Position numbers and translations under genes: made by a program. From sequence record OQ873415.1: a stretch of 64,000 nt of DNA, one strand, 5' to 3'. Positions 6,612 to 28,752 of this stretch are shown here, piece by piece. The DNA is from Escherichia phage PECP20. How positions within the stretch are numbered: the first letter of the stretch is position 1; each line of letters begins with the position of its first letter. The notes under the pieces were generated by a model that was not told the origin of the DNA, did no database searches, and saw only the letters and a program-made list of their open reading frames with translations.

Positions 6612-8425
6612 TGGTGTTTAACCCTATGCATGATTTCTTTATTTTTACCGAGATTAAATCCGCGTTCGTTCGGATTTCCCAAATAACCGCATGTCCTTCT
6701 TATAGTGTTCATCTTTTTAGGATCAGTTTCTCCACAAACTGAACAAACAAATCCGTTTTCAGTAGGAGTCATTTCATGAGTACTTCCACACGTAAAACAT
6801 TTATCTACTGGCATATTAACACCAAAATAATCTAAATGTTGTGCAGCATAATCCCACACGGCCTCAAGACCTTTTAGGTTATTTTTCATATCAGGAAGTT
6901 CAACATAAGAAATGTGACCACCTGTCGCAATGAAATGATATGGCGCTTCACGAGAAATCTTTTCAAACGGAGTAATATTTTCTTCTACTGAAACGTGGAA
7001 ACTATTAGTGTACCAGCCTTTATCGGTAACATCTTTTACGCTTCCATATTTTTCTGTATCAAGTTTACAGAAACGATAACACAAGTTTTCAGCAGGAGTA
7101 GAATATAAACTAAAAGCAAATCCAGTTCTTTCGGTCCACTGTTTAAGATGAGCATTCATTTTAGTTAAAATTTCTTGCCCAATATCACGACCGACAAGAA
7201 TATTCAATTCGTGAATACCAATGTATCCCAAAGACACTGAACTTCTACCGTTTTTAAATAACTCAATTATATCGTCGTCAGGTTTAAGACGAACCCCAAA
7301 TGCACCTTCTTGGTAAAGAATAGGAGCAACAGTCGCTTTAACTCCTTTTAAGGAACTAATTCTACACATCAAGGCTTCAAAGCACAGATCCATTCGTTCA
7401 TTAAATAACTCAACAAATTTCTGTTCATTGAACTGTGTTCCAATATAAGAATCTAACGCGATGCGAGGAAGATTCAGTGTTACAACACCGAGATTATTAC
7501 GTCCATCAAGAATTTCATTACCAGTCGAATCTTTCCATACACTCAAGAAACTACGGCAACCCATTGGAGAAACTGGAACTGAAGAACCAGTAATAGCTTT
7601 ATTATTCTTAACCGAAATAATGTCAGGATACATTCTTTTGCTTGCACATTCTAACGCAAGTTGTTTAATATCATAGTTCGGATCATCTTTATAAAGATTA
7701 ACACCTTCTTCAACAAACATAACAAGTTTAGGAAAAATAGGAGTTATTCCATCACGACCAAGACCTTTAATCCGATTTTTCAGAATTGCTTTCTGAATCA
7801 TTCGTTCGGTCCAATCAGTTCCAGTACCAAATGTAATTGTTACAAAAGGCGTTTGCCCGTTTGAACTAAAAAGAGTATTTACCTCATACTCATAAGCTTG
7901 AAATGCGTCATATACATCTTTTTCTGTTTTAGATTGAGCATAATTCAGAATGTCTGGTATTTGCCATTTTTCTGCATCTTCAACATGTTTAGCGTATGTA
8001 CGTTTAACATAAGGAGAAAGAACTTTATCGACATTCGCAAATGTAGTTCCGCCGTACTGATGTGAAGCAACTTGTGCAGTAATTTGTGCCATAATTGCAG
8101 TAGCAACACCAATCGATTTAGGCGTTTCAATTTGAGCATTGCCCAATTTAAATCCGTTCTCAAGCATCCCCTTTAAATCGACTAAACAGCAATTGGTAAA
8201 CGGAAGAGCAGGAGAATAATCAATATCATGCATGTGGATAATTCCACTTTCATGCGCATTCATAATAAAAGACGGGACCATATTTTTGGCAATGTGCTTA
8301 GACACAATACCAGCCATAAGGTCCCGTTGAGTTGGAAAAACACGAGAATCTTTATTAGCATTCTCGTTCAAAAGATCTTTATTAGTTTTATAAATTAATC
8401 CTTCAATTTCTTTTTCAATTTTCAT
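6608..8425 (-). CDS. nrdD: Anaerobic ribonucleoside-triphosphate reductase NrdD (glycyl radical enzyme), uninterrupted
   Basis: 605 aa; C-terminal glycyl-radical motif RRTCGYLG and Zn-ribbon cysteines; same length as T4 NrdD; one continuous ORF, no intron. Confidence 0.95.
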   Translation of the reverse strand: MKIEKEIEGLIYKTNKDLLNENANKDSRVFPTQRDLMAGIVSKHIAKNMVPSFIMNAHESGIIHMHDIDYSPALPFTNCCLVDLKGMLENGFKLGNAQIETPKSIGVATAIMAQITAQVASHQYGGTTFANVDKVLSPYVKRTYAKHVEDAEKWQIPDILNYAQSKTEKDVYDAFQAYEYEVNTLFSSNGQTPFVTITFGTGTDWTERMIQKAILKNRIKGLGRDGITPIFPKLVMFVEEGVNLYKDDPNYDIKQLALECASKRMYPDIISVKNNKAITGSSVPVSPMGCRSFLSVWKDSTGNEILDGRNNLGVVTLNLPRIALDSYIGTQFNEQKFVELFNERMDLCFEALMCRISSLKGVKATVAPILYQEGAFGVRLKPDDDIIELFKNGRSSVSLGYIGIHELNILVGRDIGQEILTKMNAHLKQWTERTGFAFSLYSTPAENLCYRFCKLDTEKYGSVKDVTDKGWYTNSFHVSVEENITPFEKISREAPYHFIATGGHISYVELPDMKNNLKGLEAVWDYAAQHLDYFGVNMPVDKCFTCGSTHEMTPTENGFVCSVCGETDPKKMNTIRRTCGYLGNPNERGFNLGKNKEIMHRVKHQ

Positions 8426-8895
8426 TTTAAACTCTTTCTAAGCTGCTTTTTGAATGAAGCTATTAATTGTGTTTTAGTATCAGATTCATTATATTCAAAT
8501 CCTCTTTGAAGCATCTCAGTCATCATTTCCTCTTTACCTAGTCTTGAGAACTCTTTAGTTTTGTCTGGAACAAAATTAGGATGGATATTATTATCAGAAT
8601 AATCTTGTTTCAAATAAGCAAGAAGAGCTTCAAGCCATTCGAGGTAGTCGACATCACGACCTTTAAGACCAGAACGGTTGAACTTATGCTTCATTTGGCC
8701 TTCTGCTGCGTTGCACAGATTACAGAGTAATCCACGAACTCTACCGGCTTTTGGCCCGTTTAACTCGTGGTCGTGGTCAAGATGGTTACCTTGAACATCA
8801 GGGTCTAATTCACGGTGGCAAATAGGACACTTACCGTTCTGTGCATCATAAAATTTTTGTTTTTCTTCTTTATATTTTGCGCCTGATAATAACAT
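8422..8895 (-). CDS. 49: Endonuclease VII gp49 (Holliday-junction resolvase)
   Basis: 157 aa; N-terminus MLLSGAKYKEEKQKFYDAQNGKCPICHREL... matches T4 endo VII as I remember it. Confidence 0.9.
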   Translation of the reverse strand: MLLSGAKYKEEKQKFYDAQNGKCPICHRELDPDVQGNHLDHDHELNGPKAGRVRGLLCNLCNAAEGQMKHKFNRSGLKGRDVDYLEWLEALLAYLKQDYSDNNIHPNFVPDKTKEFSRLGKEEMMTEMLQRGFEYNESDTKTQLIASFKKQLRKSLK

Positions 8896-8934: not shown

Positions 8935-9105
8935 TTAGTAAATGTTATAAAAGTTACGATGAGAACGTTTAGCTTTGCGAAGCTGACGTTTAGTAGGACG
9001 AACTGTAAATGGTTGTCCAGAGAAAAAATTCGGATCGGTTTTAATAAGCAAATACCAATCACGCTTGCCATTTTTTAATAAACGGTACAATAATTTAACT
9101 TGCAT
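8935..9105 (-). CDS. Small basic hypothetical protein (56 aa), not in the ORF track
   Basis: Hand translation MQVKLLYRLLKNGKRDWYLLIKTDPNFFSGQPFTVRPTKRQLRKAKRSHRNFYNIY; GGAAGAG ribosome-binding site. Confidence 0.35.
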   Translation of the reverse strand: MQVKLLYRLLKNGKRDWYLLIKTDPNFFSGQPFTVRPTKRQLRKAKRSHRNFYNIY

Positions 9106-9233
9106 AATAATCTCTTCCCATTTCCATATCGATTAATTCATTTATTGAAGGTTCATCATAACATGGTTCTTCGTCGTTGTAAACTGTTTCGACGTCTGGC
9201 TCGACAGTCTCCCATCGAGCAGAATACCACGGT

Positions 9234-9590
9234 TTAACCCCGGAGTTTATTGAGCTCTTCATAATCAATCCAGGATTCTAGCCCTGACGGCAGGTCACAT
9301 TCAATGTTCCACAGAAGCTCTTCAATGGCTTGCAGGCGATTATATTCTTCAACGGTAATGGTAACCATTGGTGCAACCGGTTCTGCCTTTTTAACCATCA
9401 TGTCATTCATCAGGACATACAAGTCATCACGAACGACGGTGTCGTTCCAACCCCATGATTTGGCTTCATACGCTAATGATGAAGGGAGCACATTTAAAAC
9501 TTCAATAATAGATGGAGATTCAGGACCAAGCTCTGATACACAAACTTCGTATGCATCTTGGAAATCTTTAAGATTTAATGAATATGTCAT
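9234..9590 (-). CDS. Hypothetical protein (118 aa)
   Basis: ORF track. Confidence 0.5.
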   Translation of the reverse strand: MTYSLNLKDFQDAYEVCVSELGPESPSIIEVLNVLPSSLAYEAKSWGWNDTVVRDDLYVLMNDMMVKKAEPVAPMVTITVEEYNRLQAIEELLWNIECDLPSGLESWIDYEELNKLRG

Positions 9591-9609
9591 TTAAAATATT
9601 CTCGCAGTT
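9588..9609. repeat. 22-bp direct repeat CATTTAAAATATTCTCGCAGTT, copy 1 (gene junction)
   Basis: Exact match to 9903-9924. Confidence 0.8.
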
Positions 9610-9905
9610 TATTGTTCTACCCAGGCATAGGAAACTTCGAAATCAGGACCACCGTATTCCCAGTGATATTCACCAACAGGAATCCAGTCACCGTGCTCGT
9701 TTTCTTCATAGTCCTCAGCCTCAAGGCCAACGAATCGCCATTGGACACCGATGATTCGATTACCCATCATTACTCTAAATTCACCCCATGGATTATCGAT
9801 AGCATATTGGATATCGTTCTTAGCACGAGAACACATTTCTTGATATAACAAAGCTTCTAATTTACCCTGGTCATAAGAGCCCGGGAAAGTTAAATCAATA
9901 CTCAT
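9609..9905 (-). CDS. Hypothetical protein (98 aa), flanked by the 22-bp direct repeats
   Basis: ORF track. Confidence 0.5.
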   Translation of the reverse strand: MSIDLTFPGSYDQGKLEALLYQEMCSRAKNDIQYAIDNPWGEFRVMMGNRIIGVQWRFVGLEAEDYEENEHGDWIPVGEYHWEYGGPDFEVSYAWVEQ

Positions 9906-10165
9906 TTAAAATATTCTCGCAGTTGGTCAAATCCACCAATATGACTTCCATCAGGAGCAAACACTTGAGGCATAGTCAATCCGACTTGTGATTCACGTCC
10001 AAGCTTAACCAGAAGCTCAGCAATTTTCTCATCATCAAAAACACCTTTTTCTGGCATAACATTAATGAATTCGAATGGCTGTTTCTTAACAGTCAGCAAT
10101 CGTTTCGCATTATCACAATAAATGCATTTATGAATAGTAGAGTCATACCCGTACACTTTAAACAT
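9902..10165 (-). CDS. nrdC: Glutaredoxin NrdC (phage thioredoxin), CIYC active site
   Basis: MFKVYGYDSTIHKCIYCDNAKRLLTVKKQPFEFINV... near-identical to T4 NrdC; 87 aa from the internal ATG. Confidence 0.9.
   Translation of the reverse strand: MFKVYGYDSTIHKCIYCDNAKRLLTVKKQPFEFINVMPEKGVFDDEKIAELLVKLGRESQVGLTMPQVFAPDGSHIGGFDQLREYFK
9903..9924. repeat. 22-bp direct repeat CATTTAAAATATTCTCGCAGTT, copy 2 (encodes the nrdC C-terminus ...REYFK and stop)
   Basis: Exact match to 9588-9609. Confidence 0.8.
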
Positions 10166-10571
10166 TATTTTTCCTTTCATCGATTAAATATGCAATGCCA
10201 AATACAATACATGTAATAAAACCTGTGATACAGATAGAAACCAACAACACTGTACCAAAGAACCAAATCAAGTTATCTTTAGTAGTTTGTTTGATATCCA
10301 TCTCACGAATTTCTATAGCTATCGTATCACCTTTATTCAGAAGCGTATAAAACGACGGTGATACACGCCTGTCAAAAACTCGTCCTTGCTCATCTTTATA
10401 GACTGCAATAAATTCTAATTTAGAATATTTTCCTGTAGATTGGCCTGAGATTAATTCCACTACCTCCACAGGAATTACTTTAGTTTCCATGTAAGTATTC
10501 TGGCTGTTCCAAATGAATGGAATAATGGCAAAAACTAAAGCTGCGATAAAACAACGAAGGCTATATCTCAT
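10158..10571 (-). CDS. Hypothetical membrane protein (137 aa; N- and C-terminal transmembrane helices)
   Basis: Hydrophobic segments in the translation. Confidence 0.5.
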   Translation of the reverse strand: MRYSLRCFIAALVFAIIPFIWNSQNTYMETKVIPVEVVELISGQSTGKYSKLEFIAVYKDEQGRVFDRRVSPSFYTLLNKGDTIAIEIREMDIKQTTKDNLIWFFGTVLLVSICITGFITCIVFGIAYLIDERKNNV

Positions 10572-10876
10572 TATAATGTTCTCTCAAATTTGTGGAAGCA
10601 TTTACGGCATTTCAATTTCAAGTTATCAGTGGTCCAGTTAACCAGTTGGACTTGGATAGTTCCACATTCCGGGCATGGATGTTTTGCTGCTGATTTGGCA
10701 GCATTTTCACGTCGTTCAACCATTTTCATTATTTCGTTCCATGCTGGAGGAACGAACTCTTCTTCACCGTGGATTTTATCTCGCTGAACAAATTCAATCT
10801 TTGAACTATCGTCAATAAACTTAACCAAGCCATGATTAGTGCTCATATCAATATCCTCTAAAAGACGTAGTTTCAT
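10571..10876 (-). CDS. Hypothetical protein with C-terminal zinc-ribbon (CPEC...CRKC), 101 aa
   Basis: Cys pairs CPEC and CRKC about 20 aa apart. Confidence 0.5.
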   Translation of the reverse strand: MKLRLLEDIDMSTNHGLVKFIDDSSKIEFVQRDKIHGEEEFVPPAWNEIMKMVERRENAAKSAAKHPCPECGTIQVQLVNWTTDNLKLKCRKCFHKFERTL

Positions 10877-11826
10877 TATAACACCTCAATGGCATTTCGT
10901 AAACCGTCCGCTTTCGCATTCAGAGTTTTTAACGATTTAGTCTGTTCTTTAATCTGGGCTTCGACTTCTTTCAGACGAGATTTGAGATATTCACGTTCTT
11001 CGCTCAAGTTGTCAACTTTTTCTACTTTAGGTTCTTTAATAGTCTTAAGTTTATACTCGTTAGGGTTCTTCAGCTTAATTCGGGTGCGAGAACTGTATAA
11101 CATTGAACCGTTATCTTCGGATTCGTCGAACGTTTCAACAACATCCATAGTCTCTAACAATGTAATAAGTTTATAAGACAATGAACGAACGGTTTTATTA
11201 TGCTTATTAATTTCTTCAGCTTTCATGGTACCGAGATTACGTGAGTAGTAATAAGGAACCTGGATATCAATTGATAATGATGCGTTACCATTACCGGTCG
11301 GTTTGAATACTGCAGTAACCCAATCTTTAACATGAACTTTATTTGTACGACAATCACCGCCCGTGAATAATTTACGAGAATGTTTAAAAAGCATATTCAC
11401 TTGGTTATTGAATTCACAAGCAAATTTATCAGCGAATTTAGTTTCAGGAATGGTAGATAACCAATCAGCCAAATGAGTCTTTTTAACATCATTAACAATA
11501 GTGAATTCAACCAAATCAGTTTTAGATGTCACAGATTTAATAAAGCTCGGTTTCATAAAGTTTTTAATGTTATCGCGAGCTACAGTAGAAGATAATAAAC
11601 GAGAACGTTTGAACCATTGAAGCAGTGTCCCTAATGAATGAGAATACGCATTCTGAGTATCTTTACAGATATGATTTTCTTGACCTGTGTATGTACCAAA
11701 ATCGCGAAGAATACCACTTACTACATCTCGGTGTGGAACATCAAATCCTAGTGCACCAACAGCGCGCTGGGCACGAACGTTAGCGATAAGACCGGCAAAG
11801 TATTCAATGTAATGTGAACGTGTCAT
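10876..11826 (-). CDS. Hypothetical protein (316 aa) with C-terminal coiled coil
   Basis: ORF track; own promoter; no recognisable catalytic motif. Confidence 0.55.
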   Translation of the reverse strand: MTRSHYIEYFAGLIANVRAQRAVGALGFDVPHRDVVSGILRDFGTYTGQENHICKDTQNAYSHSLGTLLQWFKRSRLLSSTVARDNIKNFMKPSFIKSVTSKTDLVEFTIVNDVKKTHLADWLSTIPETKFADKFACEFNNQVNMLFKHSRKLFTGGDCRTNKVHVKDWVTAVFKPTGNGNASLSIDIQVPYYYSRNLGTMKAEEINKHNKTVRSLSYKLITLLETMDVVETFDESEDNGSMLYSSRTRIKLKNPNEYKLKTIKEPKVEKVDNLSEEREYLKSRLKEVEAQIKEQTKSLKTLNAKADGLRNAIEVL

Positions 11827-11854
11827 AATATTTTCCTCTCGTTAAGATAGATTT

Positions 11855-11883
11855 ATTATACTCCAACCATCCTTGGTTGTAAA
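11855..11883 (-). promoter_or_regulatory. T4-type early promoter (-35 TTTACA, 17 nt, -10 TATAAT) inside a 30-bp repeat
   Basis: The 30-mer ATTTATTATACTCCAACCATCCTTGGTTGT (11851-11880) is identical to 12871-12900. Confidence 0.55.
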
Positions 11884-11888
11884 CCGTT

Positions 11889-12848
11889 TTATGATTTTAA
11901 TGCATTCATTGCATTAAAAAGTTTAGAGTACTGCAACTGGAGATTCGTTACAACACTTTGAGCATCACGAAGCTTAGCTTGTGCTTTGTCAAGTTCAACG
12001 GACAGTTGGTCTGCAGTAGCCTTGATTTGGTTGTAATGATAATCTTCGGCCGGAAGAAGGTCATTAGAAACATTTAGTTTTACTGCCGACAGTTTGCACA
12101 CATTTGGCAAACCTTTAAACATACCGGGTTGTGTCGGAGAATATGCGCTTAGAACCTCTGCATTACCGACTGGTGTTGCTGTGATATTGCCTTCGAACGT
12201 TGCATTTTCCTTTTTAAGATTTTGATAGTATTCAGAGTCTTTGTGCCACCATGGCGCAGGAACCTTTTTACCAATAGATACACGAGCCTGGATAGCGATA
12301 TGGCCCTTATTCTTGATAGGGTCGATAATATTAAGCTCACGAGAATAAATTGCTTTAATCTGGTGGATATTATCACCTAAAACTTCTAACGCTTGGTGGA
12401 ATACACGAGCAACGTTATCGTTCTTAGGTTTATACGTGAGAGTGAACTCGTTCTCGCTGATAACCATGATTTCCAACTTATCGTAAGTATATTTCAAATG
12501 TTTCATGTTAATTGCTTGAGGACGAATACGAGAAGCAATGGCCATCAGATTGTTAAGGTTATTCCGGAACTGCTTAGCGAAATATTGTCCTTCACCGCCA
12601 ATACAAAAATTACGAAGTTTCTGTTTGGCTAATAAACGGCTGAACTCACCATTTTTAATGAACTCTTTAACGGGCGTGTTAGTAACACATTCAAATTGAG
12701 TAAACATACGAGAAGTAATCCCATAATACGAACAGACTTCCTCAATCTCTTCAGGAGTTTTTACAGGCATACGGATAGGATTAGGTCCTGGAGTATATGC
12801 GTTCGAGGTAAATTCTTTGATAAGTTCTCTACGTGTAATAAAAGCCAT
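11889..12848 (-). CDS. Hypothetical protein (319 aa) with C-terminal coiled coil
   Basis: ORF track; own promoter. Confidence 0.55.
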   Translation of the reverse strand: MAFITRRELIKEFTSNAYTPGPNPIRMPVKTPEEIEEVCSYYGITSRMFTQFECVTNTPVKEFIKNGEFSRLLAKQKLRNFCIGGEGQYFAKQFRNNLNNLMAIASRIRPQAINMKHLKYTYDKLEIMVISENEFTLTYKPKNDNVARVFHQALEVLGDNIHQIKAIYSRELNIIDPIKNKGHIAIQARVSIGKKVPAPWWHKDSEYYQNLKKENATFEGNITATPVGNAEVLSAYSPTQPGMFKGLPNVCKLSAVKLNVSNDLLPAEDYHYNQIKATADQLSVELDKAQAKLRDAQSVVTNLQLQYSKLFNAMNALKS

Positions 12849-12874
12849 TTTATATTCCTCATGTTGAAAAATTT

Positions 12875-12903
12875 ATTATACTCCAACCATCCTTGGTTGT
12901 ACA
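12875..12903 (-). promoter_or_regulatory. T4-type early promoter (-35 TGTACA, 17 nt, -10 TATAAT) inside the second copy of the 30-bp repeat
   Basis: Identical 30-mer at 12871-12900. Confidence 0.55.
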
Positions 12904-13899
12904 TCATTCCTTAAGAAGTTTTACTACTTGAATAAGATTAGCTCGTTCTGTTTTATTTTTACCATTTAAGCCTGCTAATCGTGAGATTTCATCGTCAGTC
13001 TGTTGAATAGTTACATTAAGTTCGTTAATCAAAGCTTCAAAGTATTTGATTTGCTCAGCATGTTTTGATTCAAATTTCTGAACCGGAATAACGTCTTGGT
13101 TCAGTTCATCAATAAGGTCTTTAAGAGCATCTTCTTGGTTGATATCGTATTCAACTTCTTTTATTTCTTCAACGAACTCGTTTTTATATCTAACATCTTT
13201 TAGTCCTGGTGCCGGTCCTGAAATCTCTTCTTTAAGAGTACAAACATACCCAATACGGTATTGGATACCGTCTCGCTTGATATCAACTTCGTCGATAAAT
13301 CCGCAATGTTTAAGACCAGAGCCGATTAGGTCAAAATATCCTTGACGTCGTCCTTCAAACGTTACACGAACTACTAAGACAGTTTTGCCAGCGACCTTTT
13401 GAAGCTCACATTTATAAAAGTTCGTTGAACCTGAATAACGTGGATGAGTTTTAAAGTTCATCTGACGATCTAGGCCCATTTGTAAACGTGCTGTTACGGC
13501 CATAAAACGTGTTTGGTTCTCGTTAAGATGAGCAACAATCCATTTCAAAGGCATTTTACCCTGTTCACGACCGAACAAATCAGTACATCCTAGATTACGC
13601 AGGATGTTGTTAGAGTTAATCATCGACAGAACGTTAAGTTTATTCAGCGCGCTGAAGATTCCATCAGCCATTGATTTTCCATAACCTTTACACGCTTTAA
13701 TAAGTGCTCGCGGCAGATTAGTATAGATTTCAGACGGCATATGAAAATCAAATTTACTAGTCAGTAATTGATGAACTTGGATAGCAATTTGCTCGTAATT
13801 AAGTGCTCTGCGATCATTATGGTCTTTAAACCACACTTTAATCTGTGAAGCACATAAACCGTTAATTTCATGTTTTACCGCATCAGATGTAATGCTCAT
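12904..13899 (-). CDS. Hypothetical protein (331 aa) with C-terminal coiled coil
   Basis: ORF track; related CCNTCCTTGG promoter element upstream. Confidence 0.55.
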   Translation of the reverse strand: MSITSDAVKHEINGLCASQIKVWFKDHNDRRALNYEQIAIQVHQLLTSKFDFHMPSEIYTNLPRALIKACKGYGKSMADGIFSALNKLNVLSMINSNNILRNLGCTDLFGREQGKMPLKWIVAHLNENQTRFMAVTARLQMGLDRQMNFKTHPRYSGSTNFYKCELQKVAGKTVLVVRVTFEGRRQGYFDLIGSGLKHCGFIDEVDIKRDGIQYRIGYVCTLKEEISGPAPGLKDVRYKNEFVEEIKEVEYDINQEDALKDLIDELNQDVIPVQKFESKHAEQIKYFEALINELNVTIQQTDDEISRLAGLNGKNKTERANLIQVVKLLKE

Positions 13900-28446: not shown

Positions 28447-28752
28447 TTATTTTCCTCGACATTCTTTAATGAAATTTTCTAGATTGGTAGATTCAATAGC
28501 TTTTTTACGAGCTTCTGCGTGTTCTTCTTCAGACAATTTACATTTATAATTGACCCAGACGTTATGGTCGAAACTAGTCGTGGCATATAATAACAATGCT
28601 CCAACGAATAGCAAAAACGGCGATAAGAATACAAAACCAGGAACACCATCCATACTGTAAGCCTTTTGTAATACTGCAACAGAAAGAGCTGCGTAAAAAA
28701 GTGATACAAATATTGTTAAAAGACCAATTCGGTTGGTTTCGCCTAATTTCAT
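28447..28752 (-). CDS. Membrane protein, C-terminal ...ENFIKECRGK (FIxECR-tail family member 2)
   Basis: Two transmembrane helices plus conserved tail. Confidence 0.5.
   Translation of the reverse strand: MKLGETNRIGLLTIFVSLFYAALSVAVLQKAYSMDGVPGFVFLSPFLLFVGALLLYATTSFDHNVWVNYKCKLSEEEHAEARKKAIESTNLENFIKECRGK

Follow-up and report, generated by a model that had tools for sequence, protein, structure and literature searches.

A duplicated nrdC tail brackets the gene 49.3 homolog in Escherichia phage PECP20, an RB69-like T4-type phage

In the T4-type phages RB49 and phi1, PeSL (promoter-early stem-loop) cassettes are known to flank ORFans (Arbiol et al. 2010, PMC2839356; Comeau et al. 2014, PMC4122927). 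T4 forms joins at minihomologies of 3–4 nt in a UvsX-dependent manner (Wu et al. 2021, PMC8262927), and amplifications and deletions at microhomologies of 6–10 bp arose in its experimental evolution (Srikant et al. 2022, PMC9391042). The nrdC region was among the dispensable regions lost in the evolved phages (PMC9391042). Earlier work on short homologies in T4 (Kumagai 1993; Mosig 1987; Wu, Wu and Black 1991) is cited in PMC8262927 and PMC9391042. Here, the nrdC locus was analyzed in a 64,000-nt stretch of Escherichia phage PECP20 (OQ873415.1; the whole stretch is called the window and is numbered from its first base). At this locus a 98-amino-acid (aa) open reading frame (ORF) next to nrdC is bracketed by two direct copies of a 23-bp sequence. 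The source phage is an RB69-like T4-type phage of the genus Mosigvirus, with Escherichia phage CAU_ECP01 as the best match (99.9% over 1051 bp).

The locus is a clear but ordinary case of a known type of event, an indel between short direct repeats in the hyperplastic region of a T4-type genome. Direct copies bracket a variable segment, and the alternative allele has one copy and is shorter by one period. As in the PeSL cassettes, a small accessory ORF lies between direct repeats in a hyperplastic region, close relatives without the ORF keep one repeat, and recombination between repeats is the proposed driver. Unlike PeSL, the repeat is here the 23-bp coding end of nrdC, doubling as a translation start region; only two copies exist rather than a dispersed family, and the locus, known from its sequence, offers no evidence of circles. 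Membership in the PeSL group was considered and rejected, as there is no promoter, no stem-loop and no dispersal of the motif. No promoter was found on the minus strand overlapping either copy, the sole match (9/12) being on the plus strand and at chance level. The scan detected no terminator-like site or G/C-rich stem-loop at either copy, and RNA folding of both junctions, with z-scores of +0.7 and +1.2, was not better than that of shuffled sequences.

The T4 short-homology events resemble the present locus in that an indel between short direct repeats leaves one copy behind and non-essential accessory genes are hit. They differ in being laboratory events at 3–10 bp, whereas this one is natural, long-standing and built on a 23-bp repeat that an earlier rearrangement appears to have made. 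Integron gene cassettes and transposon target-site duplications share the discrete gene, the short flanking direct repeats and the variable presence, but the locus lacks an integrase, an attC site, a transposase and terminal inverted repeats, and its repeat comes from neighboring coding sequence. The locus stands out by the nature of its repeat, which is no promoter or terminator element but a conserved gene's coding tail that also serves the following gene as translation start region. No paper on the nrdC-tail duplication was found in the literature searched, the coverage of which was not exhaustive.

The direct repeat is exact over 23 bp, with copies at 9587–9609 and 9902–9924, a period of 315 bp and 23/23 identity. 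On the minus strand, which carries all of the local genes, it reads AACTGCGAGAATATTTTAAATGA. A sequence-only reading of the window had reported an exact 22-bp repeat, CATTTAAAATATTCTCGCAGTT, at 9588–9609 and 9903–9924. These are its two exact matches in the window, and a T at both 9587 and 9902 extends the identity by one base. No third copy of the 22-mer was present in the window at up to 3 mismatches, and 100 dinucleotide-preserving shuffles gave 0 matches to it.

The upstream, native copy (9902–9924, minus strand) reads ..Q L R E Y F K stop. It encodes the last codons of nrdC (LREYFK) and the TGA at 9904–9902, which is overlapped, as ATGA, by the ATG of the 98-aa ORF at 9905–9903. The downstream copy (9587–9609, minus strand) is essentially non-coding and repeats the nrdC tail ahead of a 118-aa ORF (ORF118; 9234–9590, minus strand). 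It is intergenic except for base 9609, which is the last base of the TAA stop of the 98-aa ORF. It carries the ATG of ORF118 (9590–9588) and supplies, separated from it by a 10-nt spacer, a Shine–Dalgarno-like GAG triplet. The reading frames agree with the earlier assignment of the REYFK-stop of nrdC and the next gene's ATG to the copy at 9903–9924, of the following gene's ATG to a non-coding copy at 9588–9609 (base 9609 apart), and of the 98-aa ORF to 9609–9905 on the minus strand.

Every T4-type phage examined has the 23-mer, with 0–3 mismatches, as the coding end of its nrdC, and for this reason the downstream intergenic copy is clearly the derived one, duplicated from the nrdC tail. The terminal nrdC sequence is identical to the 23-mer in Mosigvirus and in several Tequatrovirus contigs, and that of T4, JS98, Merlin and Moon departs from it by 2–3 mismatches. 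A further copy, located downstream of the 98-aa gene (the homolog of T4 gene 49.3), was found in Mosigvirus genomes only.

Filled and empty sites were compared in the GenBank phage collection, and an IMG/VR scan with the 118-aa protein gave 8 loci. RB69 reads ..GACCAACTGCGAGAATATTTTAAATGA (nrdC..AAATGA) and continues directly with CATATTCATTAAATC.., which corresponds to the window minus 315 bp with one copy of the 23-mer. Its alignment to the locus spans 737 bp, compared with 1051 bp here. The same one-copy arrangement without the 315 bp was found in ESh15, JQD51, mar005P1 and one IMG/VR contig. The 315-bp indel unit, at 9610–9924 or equivalently 9587–9901, is precisely absent in RB69-type genomes. 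In these empty-site phages ORF118 stands directly after nrdC, whose tail provides the region for its translation start.

A 121-nt probe for the downstream junction matched 117 records. The full junction was present in 42/117, while in 14/117 the end of 49.3 and the repeat were followed by the next gene in a diverged 111-aa form (PhAPEC2-type allele). The remainder, about 61 of the 117, matched from the repeat onward only and are in the empty state. Filled records total 56 (42 + 14) and correspond to the 56 in which tblastn found a 49.3 allele at 80% identity or higher; both copies were present in all of them. The sequence-only reading had suggested a comparison with T4-like phages, to see whether the 98-aa gene is missing where a single repeat copy exists. 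This proved to be so in about 60 records in all, RB69, ESh15, JQD51 and mar005P1 among them, which have one copy each and are without exactly the 315-bp unit. The difference of ±315 bp is a simple marker, of a size suited to the polymerase chain reaction, for typing Mosigvirus isolates.

The 98-aa gene (9609–9905, minus strand), the cargo of the 315-bp unit, encodes the Mosigvirus counterpart of T4 gp49.3. The protein falls into phrog_4203 (E = 2e-45) and is 43% identical to T4 gp49.3 over 96% of the query (1e-17, tblastn). PF26871 is carried by 34/34 of its database relatives; a Pfam set searched without PF26871 gave no match to the 98-aa protein itself. PADLOC gave no match with the protein and its neighbors, and a sequence-profile search of the PDB returned only nanobody matches at chance level (E > 0.3). 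A structural search with the AlphaFold model, which had a predicted local distance difference test score (pLDDT) of 96.4, compared with 58.7 for prediction from 6 sequences, gave no informative match.

T4 gene 49.3 (NP_049697, uncharacterized, 11.9 kDa, in the pin–nrdC region) is like the 98-aa gene in length, in its place directly 3′ of nrdC and in its ATGA overlap. T4 differs in that no duplicated nrdC tail follows 49.3 and the next gene is 49.2, unrelated to ORF118; homology of ORF118 to T4 49.2 was looked for and none was found. The 49.3 homolog lies immediately after nrdC in T4, one gene further in Merlin and two ORFs further in JS98, and no second nrdC-tail copy was found beside the 49.3 homologs of these three phages. 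Because T4 49.3 also directly follows nrdC with an ATGA overlap, synteny indicates that the 98-aa ORF is no foreign cassette but a resident gene, occupying the place usual for its T4 counterpart. The sequence-only reading had taken the repeat as the footprint of cassette insertion by short-homology recombination, a view that it held open to refutation by relatives carrying the same gene without flanking repeats, as T4, JS98 and Merlin do. The part that stands is the duplication of the nrdC 3′ junction in the downstream copy; the ORF is resident, the duplication is old, and the repeat does not give the direction of the event.

The spacing of the copies was 315 bp in 14/14 filled genomes read base by base. 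Within these 14 genomes the two copies differ by 0–3 nt. ChristianSchoenbein, WFbE185 and ATK47 have AACTACGAGAATATTTT.. as their upstream copy and ACCTGCGAGAAAATTTT.. as their downstream one, and variants such as ACCTGCGAGAAAAT.. occur in relatives. Since up to 3 nt separate the two copies of some genomes, the duplication is old and predates the divergence of the filled lineages compared. Synonymous divergence (dS) ranges from 0.19 to 0.50 among the 49.3 alleles, and in the flanks from 0.01 to 0.07 for nrdC.7, 0.06 to 0.24 for nrdC and 0.03 to 0.17 for the 118-aa ORF. The dS of 49.3 is at least as high as that of the flanking genes, consistent with an old duplication.

The filled or empty state does not track the relatedness of the flanks. 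ChristianSchoenbein (filled) and RB69 (empty) have flanks that are 98.7% and 99.0% identical, while downstream ChristianSchoenbein has just 95.6% identity with the window. The filled LF82-3 and the empty PhAPEC2 agree at 98.8% in the downstream flank. Both states occur inside the species phapec2 of the International Committee on Taxonomy of Viruses, and likewise inside mar005p1. The 49.3 of Mizar differs by 0.7% from that of ChristianSchoenbein, and the tail copy and downstream allele of Mizar are of the LF82-3 type; this hybrid pattern points to a recombination breakpoint at the boundary between the 49.3 stop and the tail. No diagnostic chimeric signature was seen in the single copy at empty sites, where the downstream-copy variants would be non-synonymous in nrdC.

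The locus probably results from an ancient illegitimate join of two gene orders, followed by a presence/absence polymorphism that is maintained by deletion between the repeats and by homologous exchange. One old join, at a microhomology of 0–2 nt, would have connected the nrdC–49.3 order known from T4 to the nrdC–ORF118 order known from RB69. The join point would lie directly behind the stop codon of 49.3 and 19 nt ahead of the ATG of ORF118, and the other side would have been an ordinary homologous crossover within nrdC. An illegitimate join is invoked because a legitimate double crossover cannot create a second nrdC-tail copy. Seen from the RB69-type parent, 49.3 would have been inserted; seen from the T4-type parent, the sequence after 49.3 would have been replaced. 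ORF118 would thereby have kept its native translation start region, lying inside the last codons of nrdC, and this is probably why the recombinant survived.

At later times the 315-bp unit, made up of 49.3 and one tail copy, would have been lost precisely by recombination between the direct copies, and would have been regained or reassorted through homologous exchange with a co-infecting filled genome. By analogy with T4-type recombination, which uses far shorter homologies, 23-bp repeats 315 bp apart would form an obvious deletion substrate. Deletion between the copies would regenerate exactly the RB69-type site, so that today's empty sites may be parental, secondary or both. From these comparisons we infer the hybrid-join origin, and also that the empty sites of today include secondary deletions.

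A second direct-repeat deletion scar lies 500 bp from the 315-bp unit, where the pin (protease inhibitor) gene is missing from the window. The 56-aa ORF at 8935–9105 is a chimera of two small paralogous ORFs, one on either side of pin in RB69, WFbE185 and LF82-3. Its 5′ part corresponds to the 56-aa ORF upstream of pin (WFbE185, LF82-3), its last codons and the downstream sequence to ORF087c, downstream of pin, and the switch is located in a brief stretch common to both ORFs, ..TCATCG..ACTTTTATA... The pin-less arrangement is common to ST0, PTK and CAU_ECP01. As read from these alignments, the pin deletion is independent evidence that direct-repeat deletions happen in this genome.

The downstream copy shows 0.059 differences per site, compared with 0.119 at the third codon positions of 49.3. 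GAG...TTTTAAATG is kept in all of its variants, and the annotators of Mizar placed ribosome-binding sites on the GAG of both copies. These features are compatible with modest constraint on the downstream copy as a translation start region, and it is plausible that the copy acts as the ribosome-binding region of ORF118.

Several points weigh against an ancient join with later deletions. The empty sites may be unmodified descendants of the RB69-type parent, as the repeat does not fix the direction of the indel. An intermediate, carrying the Mosigvirus 49.3 with a different downstream junction, was not available among the genomes compared. GenBank/RefSeq duplicates swell the counts of both filled and empty records, and about 20 of about 120 genomes were read base by base, the others being classed by BLAST coverage. 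Moreover, the downstream copy appears only mildly more conserved than the third positions of 49.3.

A different explanation, which is unlikely and sharpens the sequence-only reading, is that 49.3 and one 23-mer form a mobile mini-cassette. The unit would excise as a 315-bp circle and integrate at an empty site through one crossover in the nrdC tail, so that filled genomes would be insertions into an ancestral RB69-type site. Precise one-copy empty sites do exist, the flanking copies are exact in the window, and the conserved nrdC tail would offer a ready target across genera. Repeat-flanked ORFan circles also have a precedent in T4-type phages, in the PeSL of RB49/phi1 (PMC2839356). Nevertheless, such a circle needs a two-copy locus beforehand, which leaves the origin of the duplication unexplained, and T4 has 49.3 as a native gene in the same slot without repeats. 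The deep divergence of the 49.3 alleles does not fit a recently spreading element. The 23-mer has neither promoter nor stem-loop and exists in two copies only, and no Mosigvirus 49.3 allele was seen by tblastn at another genomic site or in another genus. The scatter of filled and empty states relative to flank similarity, which a mobile unit would produce, is explained equally well by ordinary homologous exchange in the flanks.

A broader variant of this idea would make the nrdC tail a promoter-less counterpart of PeSL, a portable joint of translation start signals and recombination target that moves gp49.3, and possibly other genes of the slot, as small circles. We regard this as quite improbable. 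The docking might extend to co-infecting Tevenvirinae of other genera, in which the nrdC tails match at 20–23/23 bases. If true, the stop/start overlap of a conserved gene would be a general site at which accessory genes are exchanged.

The slot after the nrdC tail does hold different genes in different phages. A 71-aa protein occupies it in mobillu, moskry, Merlin and several Tequatrovirus contigs. The gene for it (about 70 aa, MLEGTDYIHDYRG...) was located directly after the tail in mobillu (L004, 1708–1923), moskry (L023, 1289–1504), Merlin (L006, 1277–1486) and the IMG/VR loci L010–L012; it is carried by some Mosigvirus, Moonvirus and Tequatrovirus genomes. In JS98 the slot holds a small membrane-like ORF. 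At least four unrelated genes can stand behind the nrdC ATGA junction, and this diversity suggests that the stop/start overlap at the nrdC end is a recurrent module boundary. Separately, in JS98 (L007, 1112–1134 and about 1272–1292) the small ORF between nrdC and the ORF092c-like gene ends in ..NFK-stop and shares TTCAAATGA with the nrdC tail. These 9 nt may reflect a very eroded parallel junction duplication or chance, the match being too short to distinguish the two.

Convergence on a selected regulatory motif is a very unlikely origin of the repeat. The two 23-mers would then be alike as start regions tuned to one regulator or to translational coupling, with no duplication involved. Each copy adjoins and includes a start codon, the GAG triplet and TTTTAAATG are retained in every downstream-copy variant, and ribosome-binding sites have been annotated in both copies. 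On the other hand, the 23/23 identity covers bases that matter only as nrdC codons, the downstream copy drifts in other lineages, the empty site is base-exact and the RNA structure is not significant. The sequence-only reading had itself named a common regulatory motif, found at many junctions, as an alternative to insertion. This is effectively refuted, as the motif occurs at no other junction in the 64 kb of densely packed genes at up to 3 mismatches.

That a transposon, a homing-endonuclease gene or some other enzyme-driven insertion left the repeats as a target-site duplication is hardly credible: direct repeats around a discrete insert would fit it and T4-type genomes carry homing endonucleases elsewhere, but no transposase, integrase or homing endonuclease family was found in the 98-aa protein or its neighbors (PHROGs, Pfam, PADLOC), the fold of the cargo has no informative match, terminal inverted repeats are absent, and 49.3 is a stable syntenic resident in other genera.

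With the join of two gene orders as the preferred history, the locus illustrates in nature, precise to the base, how small accessory genes are gained and lost by T4-type phages while the expression of the neighbors is left undisturbed. The rearrangement duplicated exactly the upstream coding end that would serve as the ribosome-binding region of the next gene. The boundaries of modules in hyperplastic regions can therefore be stop/start overlaps of conserved genes, and not just the promoter and terminator elements of PeSL. In addition, the comparison flags gp49.3 as a dispensable accessory gene product that is frequently lost and under purifying selection; the ratio of non-synonymous to synonymous divergence (dN/dS) of 49.3 is about 0.03–0.17 among lineages. 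It is a candidate host-range or counter-defense factor. In the same region, nrdC.5 is known to counter Dsr1 (PMC9391042).

On the coding strand the genes of the locus are arranged in the order nrdC.7, nrdC, 98-aa ORF, 118-aa ORF, 49.1 homolog, 56-aa ORF, gene 49 and nrdD. All of those placed here are on the minus strand. nrdC.7 lies at 10158–10571 and nrdC, a phage glutaredoxin/thioredoxin (PF00462), at 9902–10180; the usual annotated start gives 87 aa at 9902–10165. The 49.1 homolog (9095–9268) and the 56-aa ORF are followed by gene 49, encoding endonuclease VII (8422–8895).

The 118-aa ORF belongs to the RB69ORF092c+091c family (phrog_11244) and looks to be made of two parts. Residues 64–118 match phrog_3402, labeled 'antitoxin from a toxin-antitoxin system' (E = 1e-32), and matches of the N-terminal half are to other PHROGs and to the orf81 protein of JS98. 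The C-terminal part stands alone, as a separate small ORF, in Merlin, Moon, mobillu and moskry. In the RB69 reference a frameshift splits the homolog into ORF092c and ORF091c. The 111-aa allele, with 68% identity, is found in PhAPEC2, LF82-3 and Mizar.

Other direct repeats were observed in the window. A 43-nt repeat, 88% identical between copies at 11846–11888 and 12866–12908, contains strong early-promoter matches on the minus strand (TTTACA-17-TATAAT and TGTACA-17-TATAAT). Its copies lie directly upstream of the nrdC.3 homolog (10876–11826) and of a 319-aa ORF (11889–12848), and bracket the latter in a PeSL-like manner. Further direct repeats of 20–89 nt were found at 28728–28816/30292–30380, 14508–14564/15984–16040 and 29031–29050/30326–30345. 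They resemble reverse-complemented early promoter regions (GATAGG.CTA..TATAA....TTGTA.AC) and are probably dispersed promoter-type repeats typical of the hyperplastic regions of T4-type phages.

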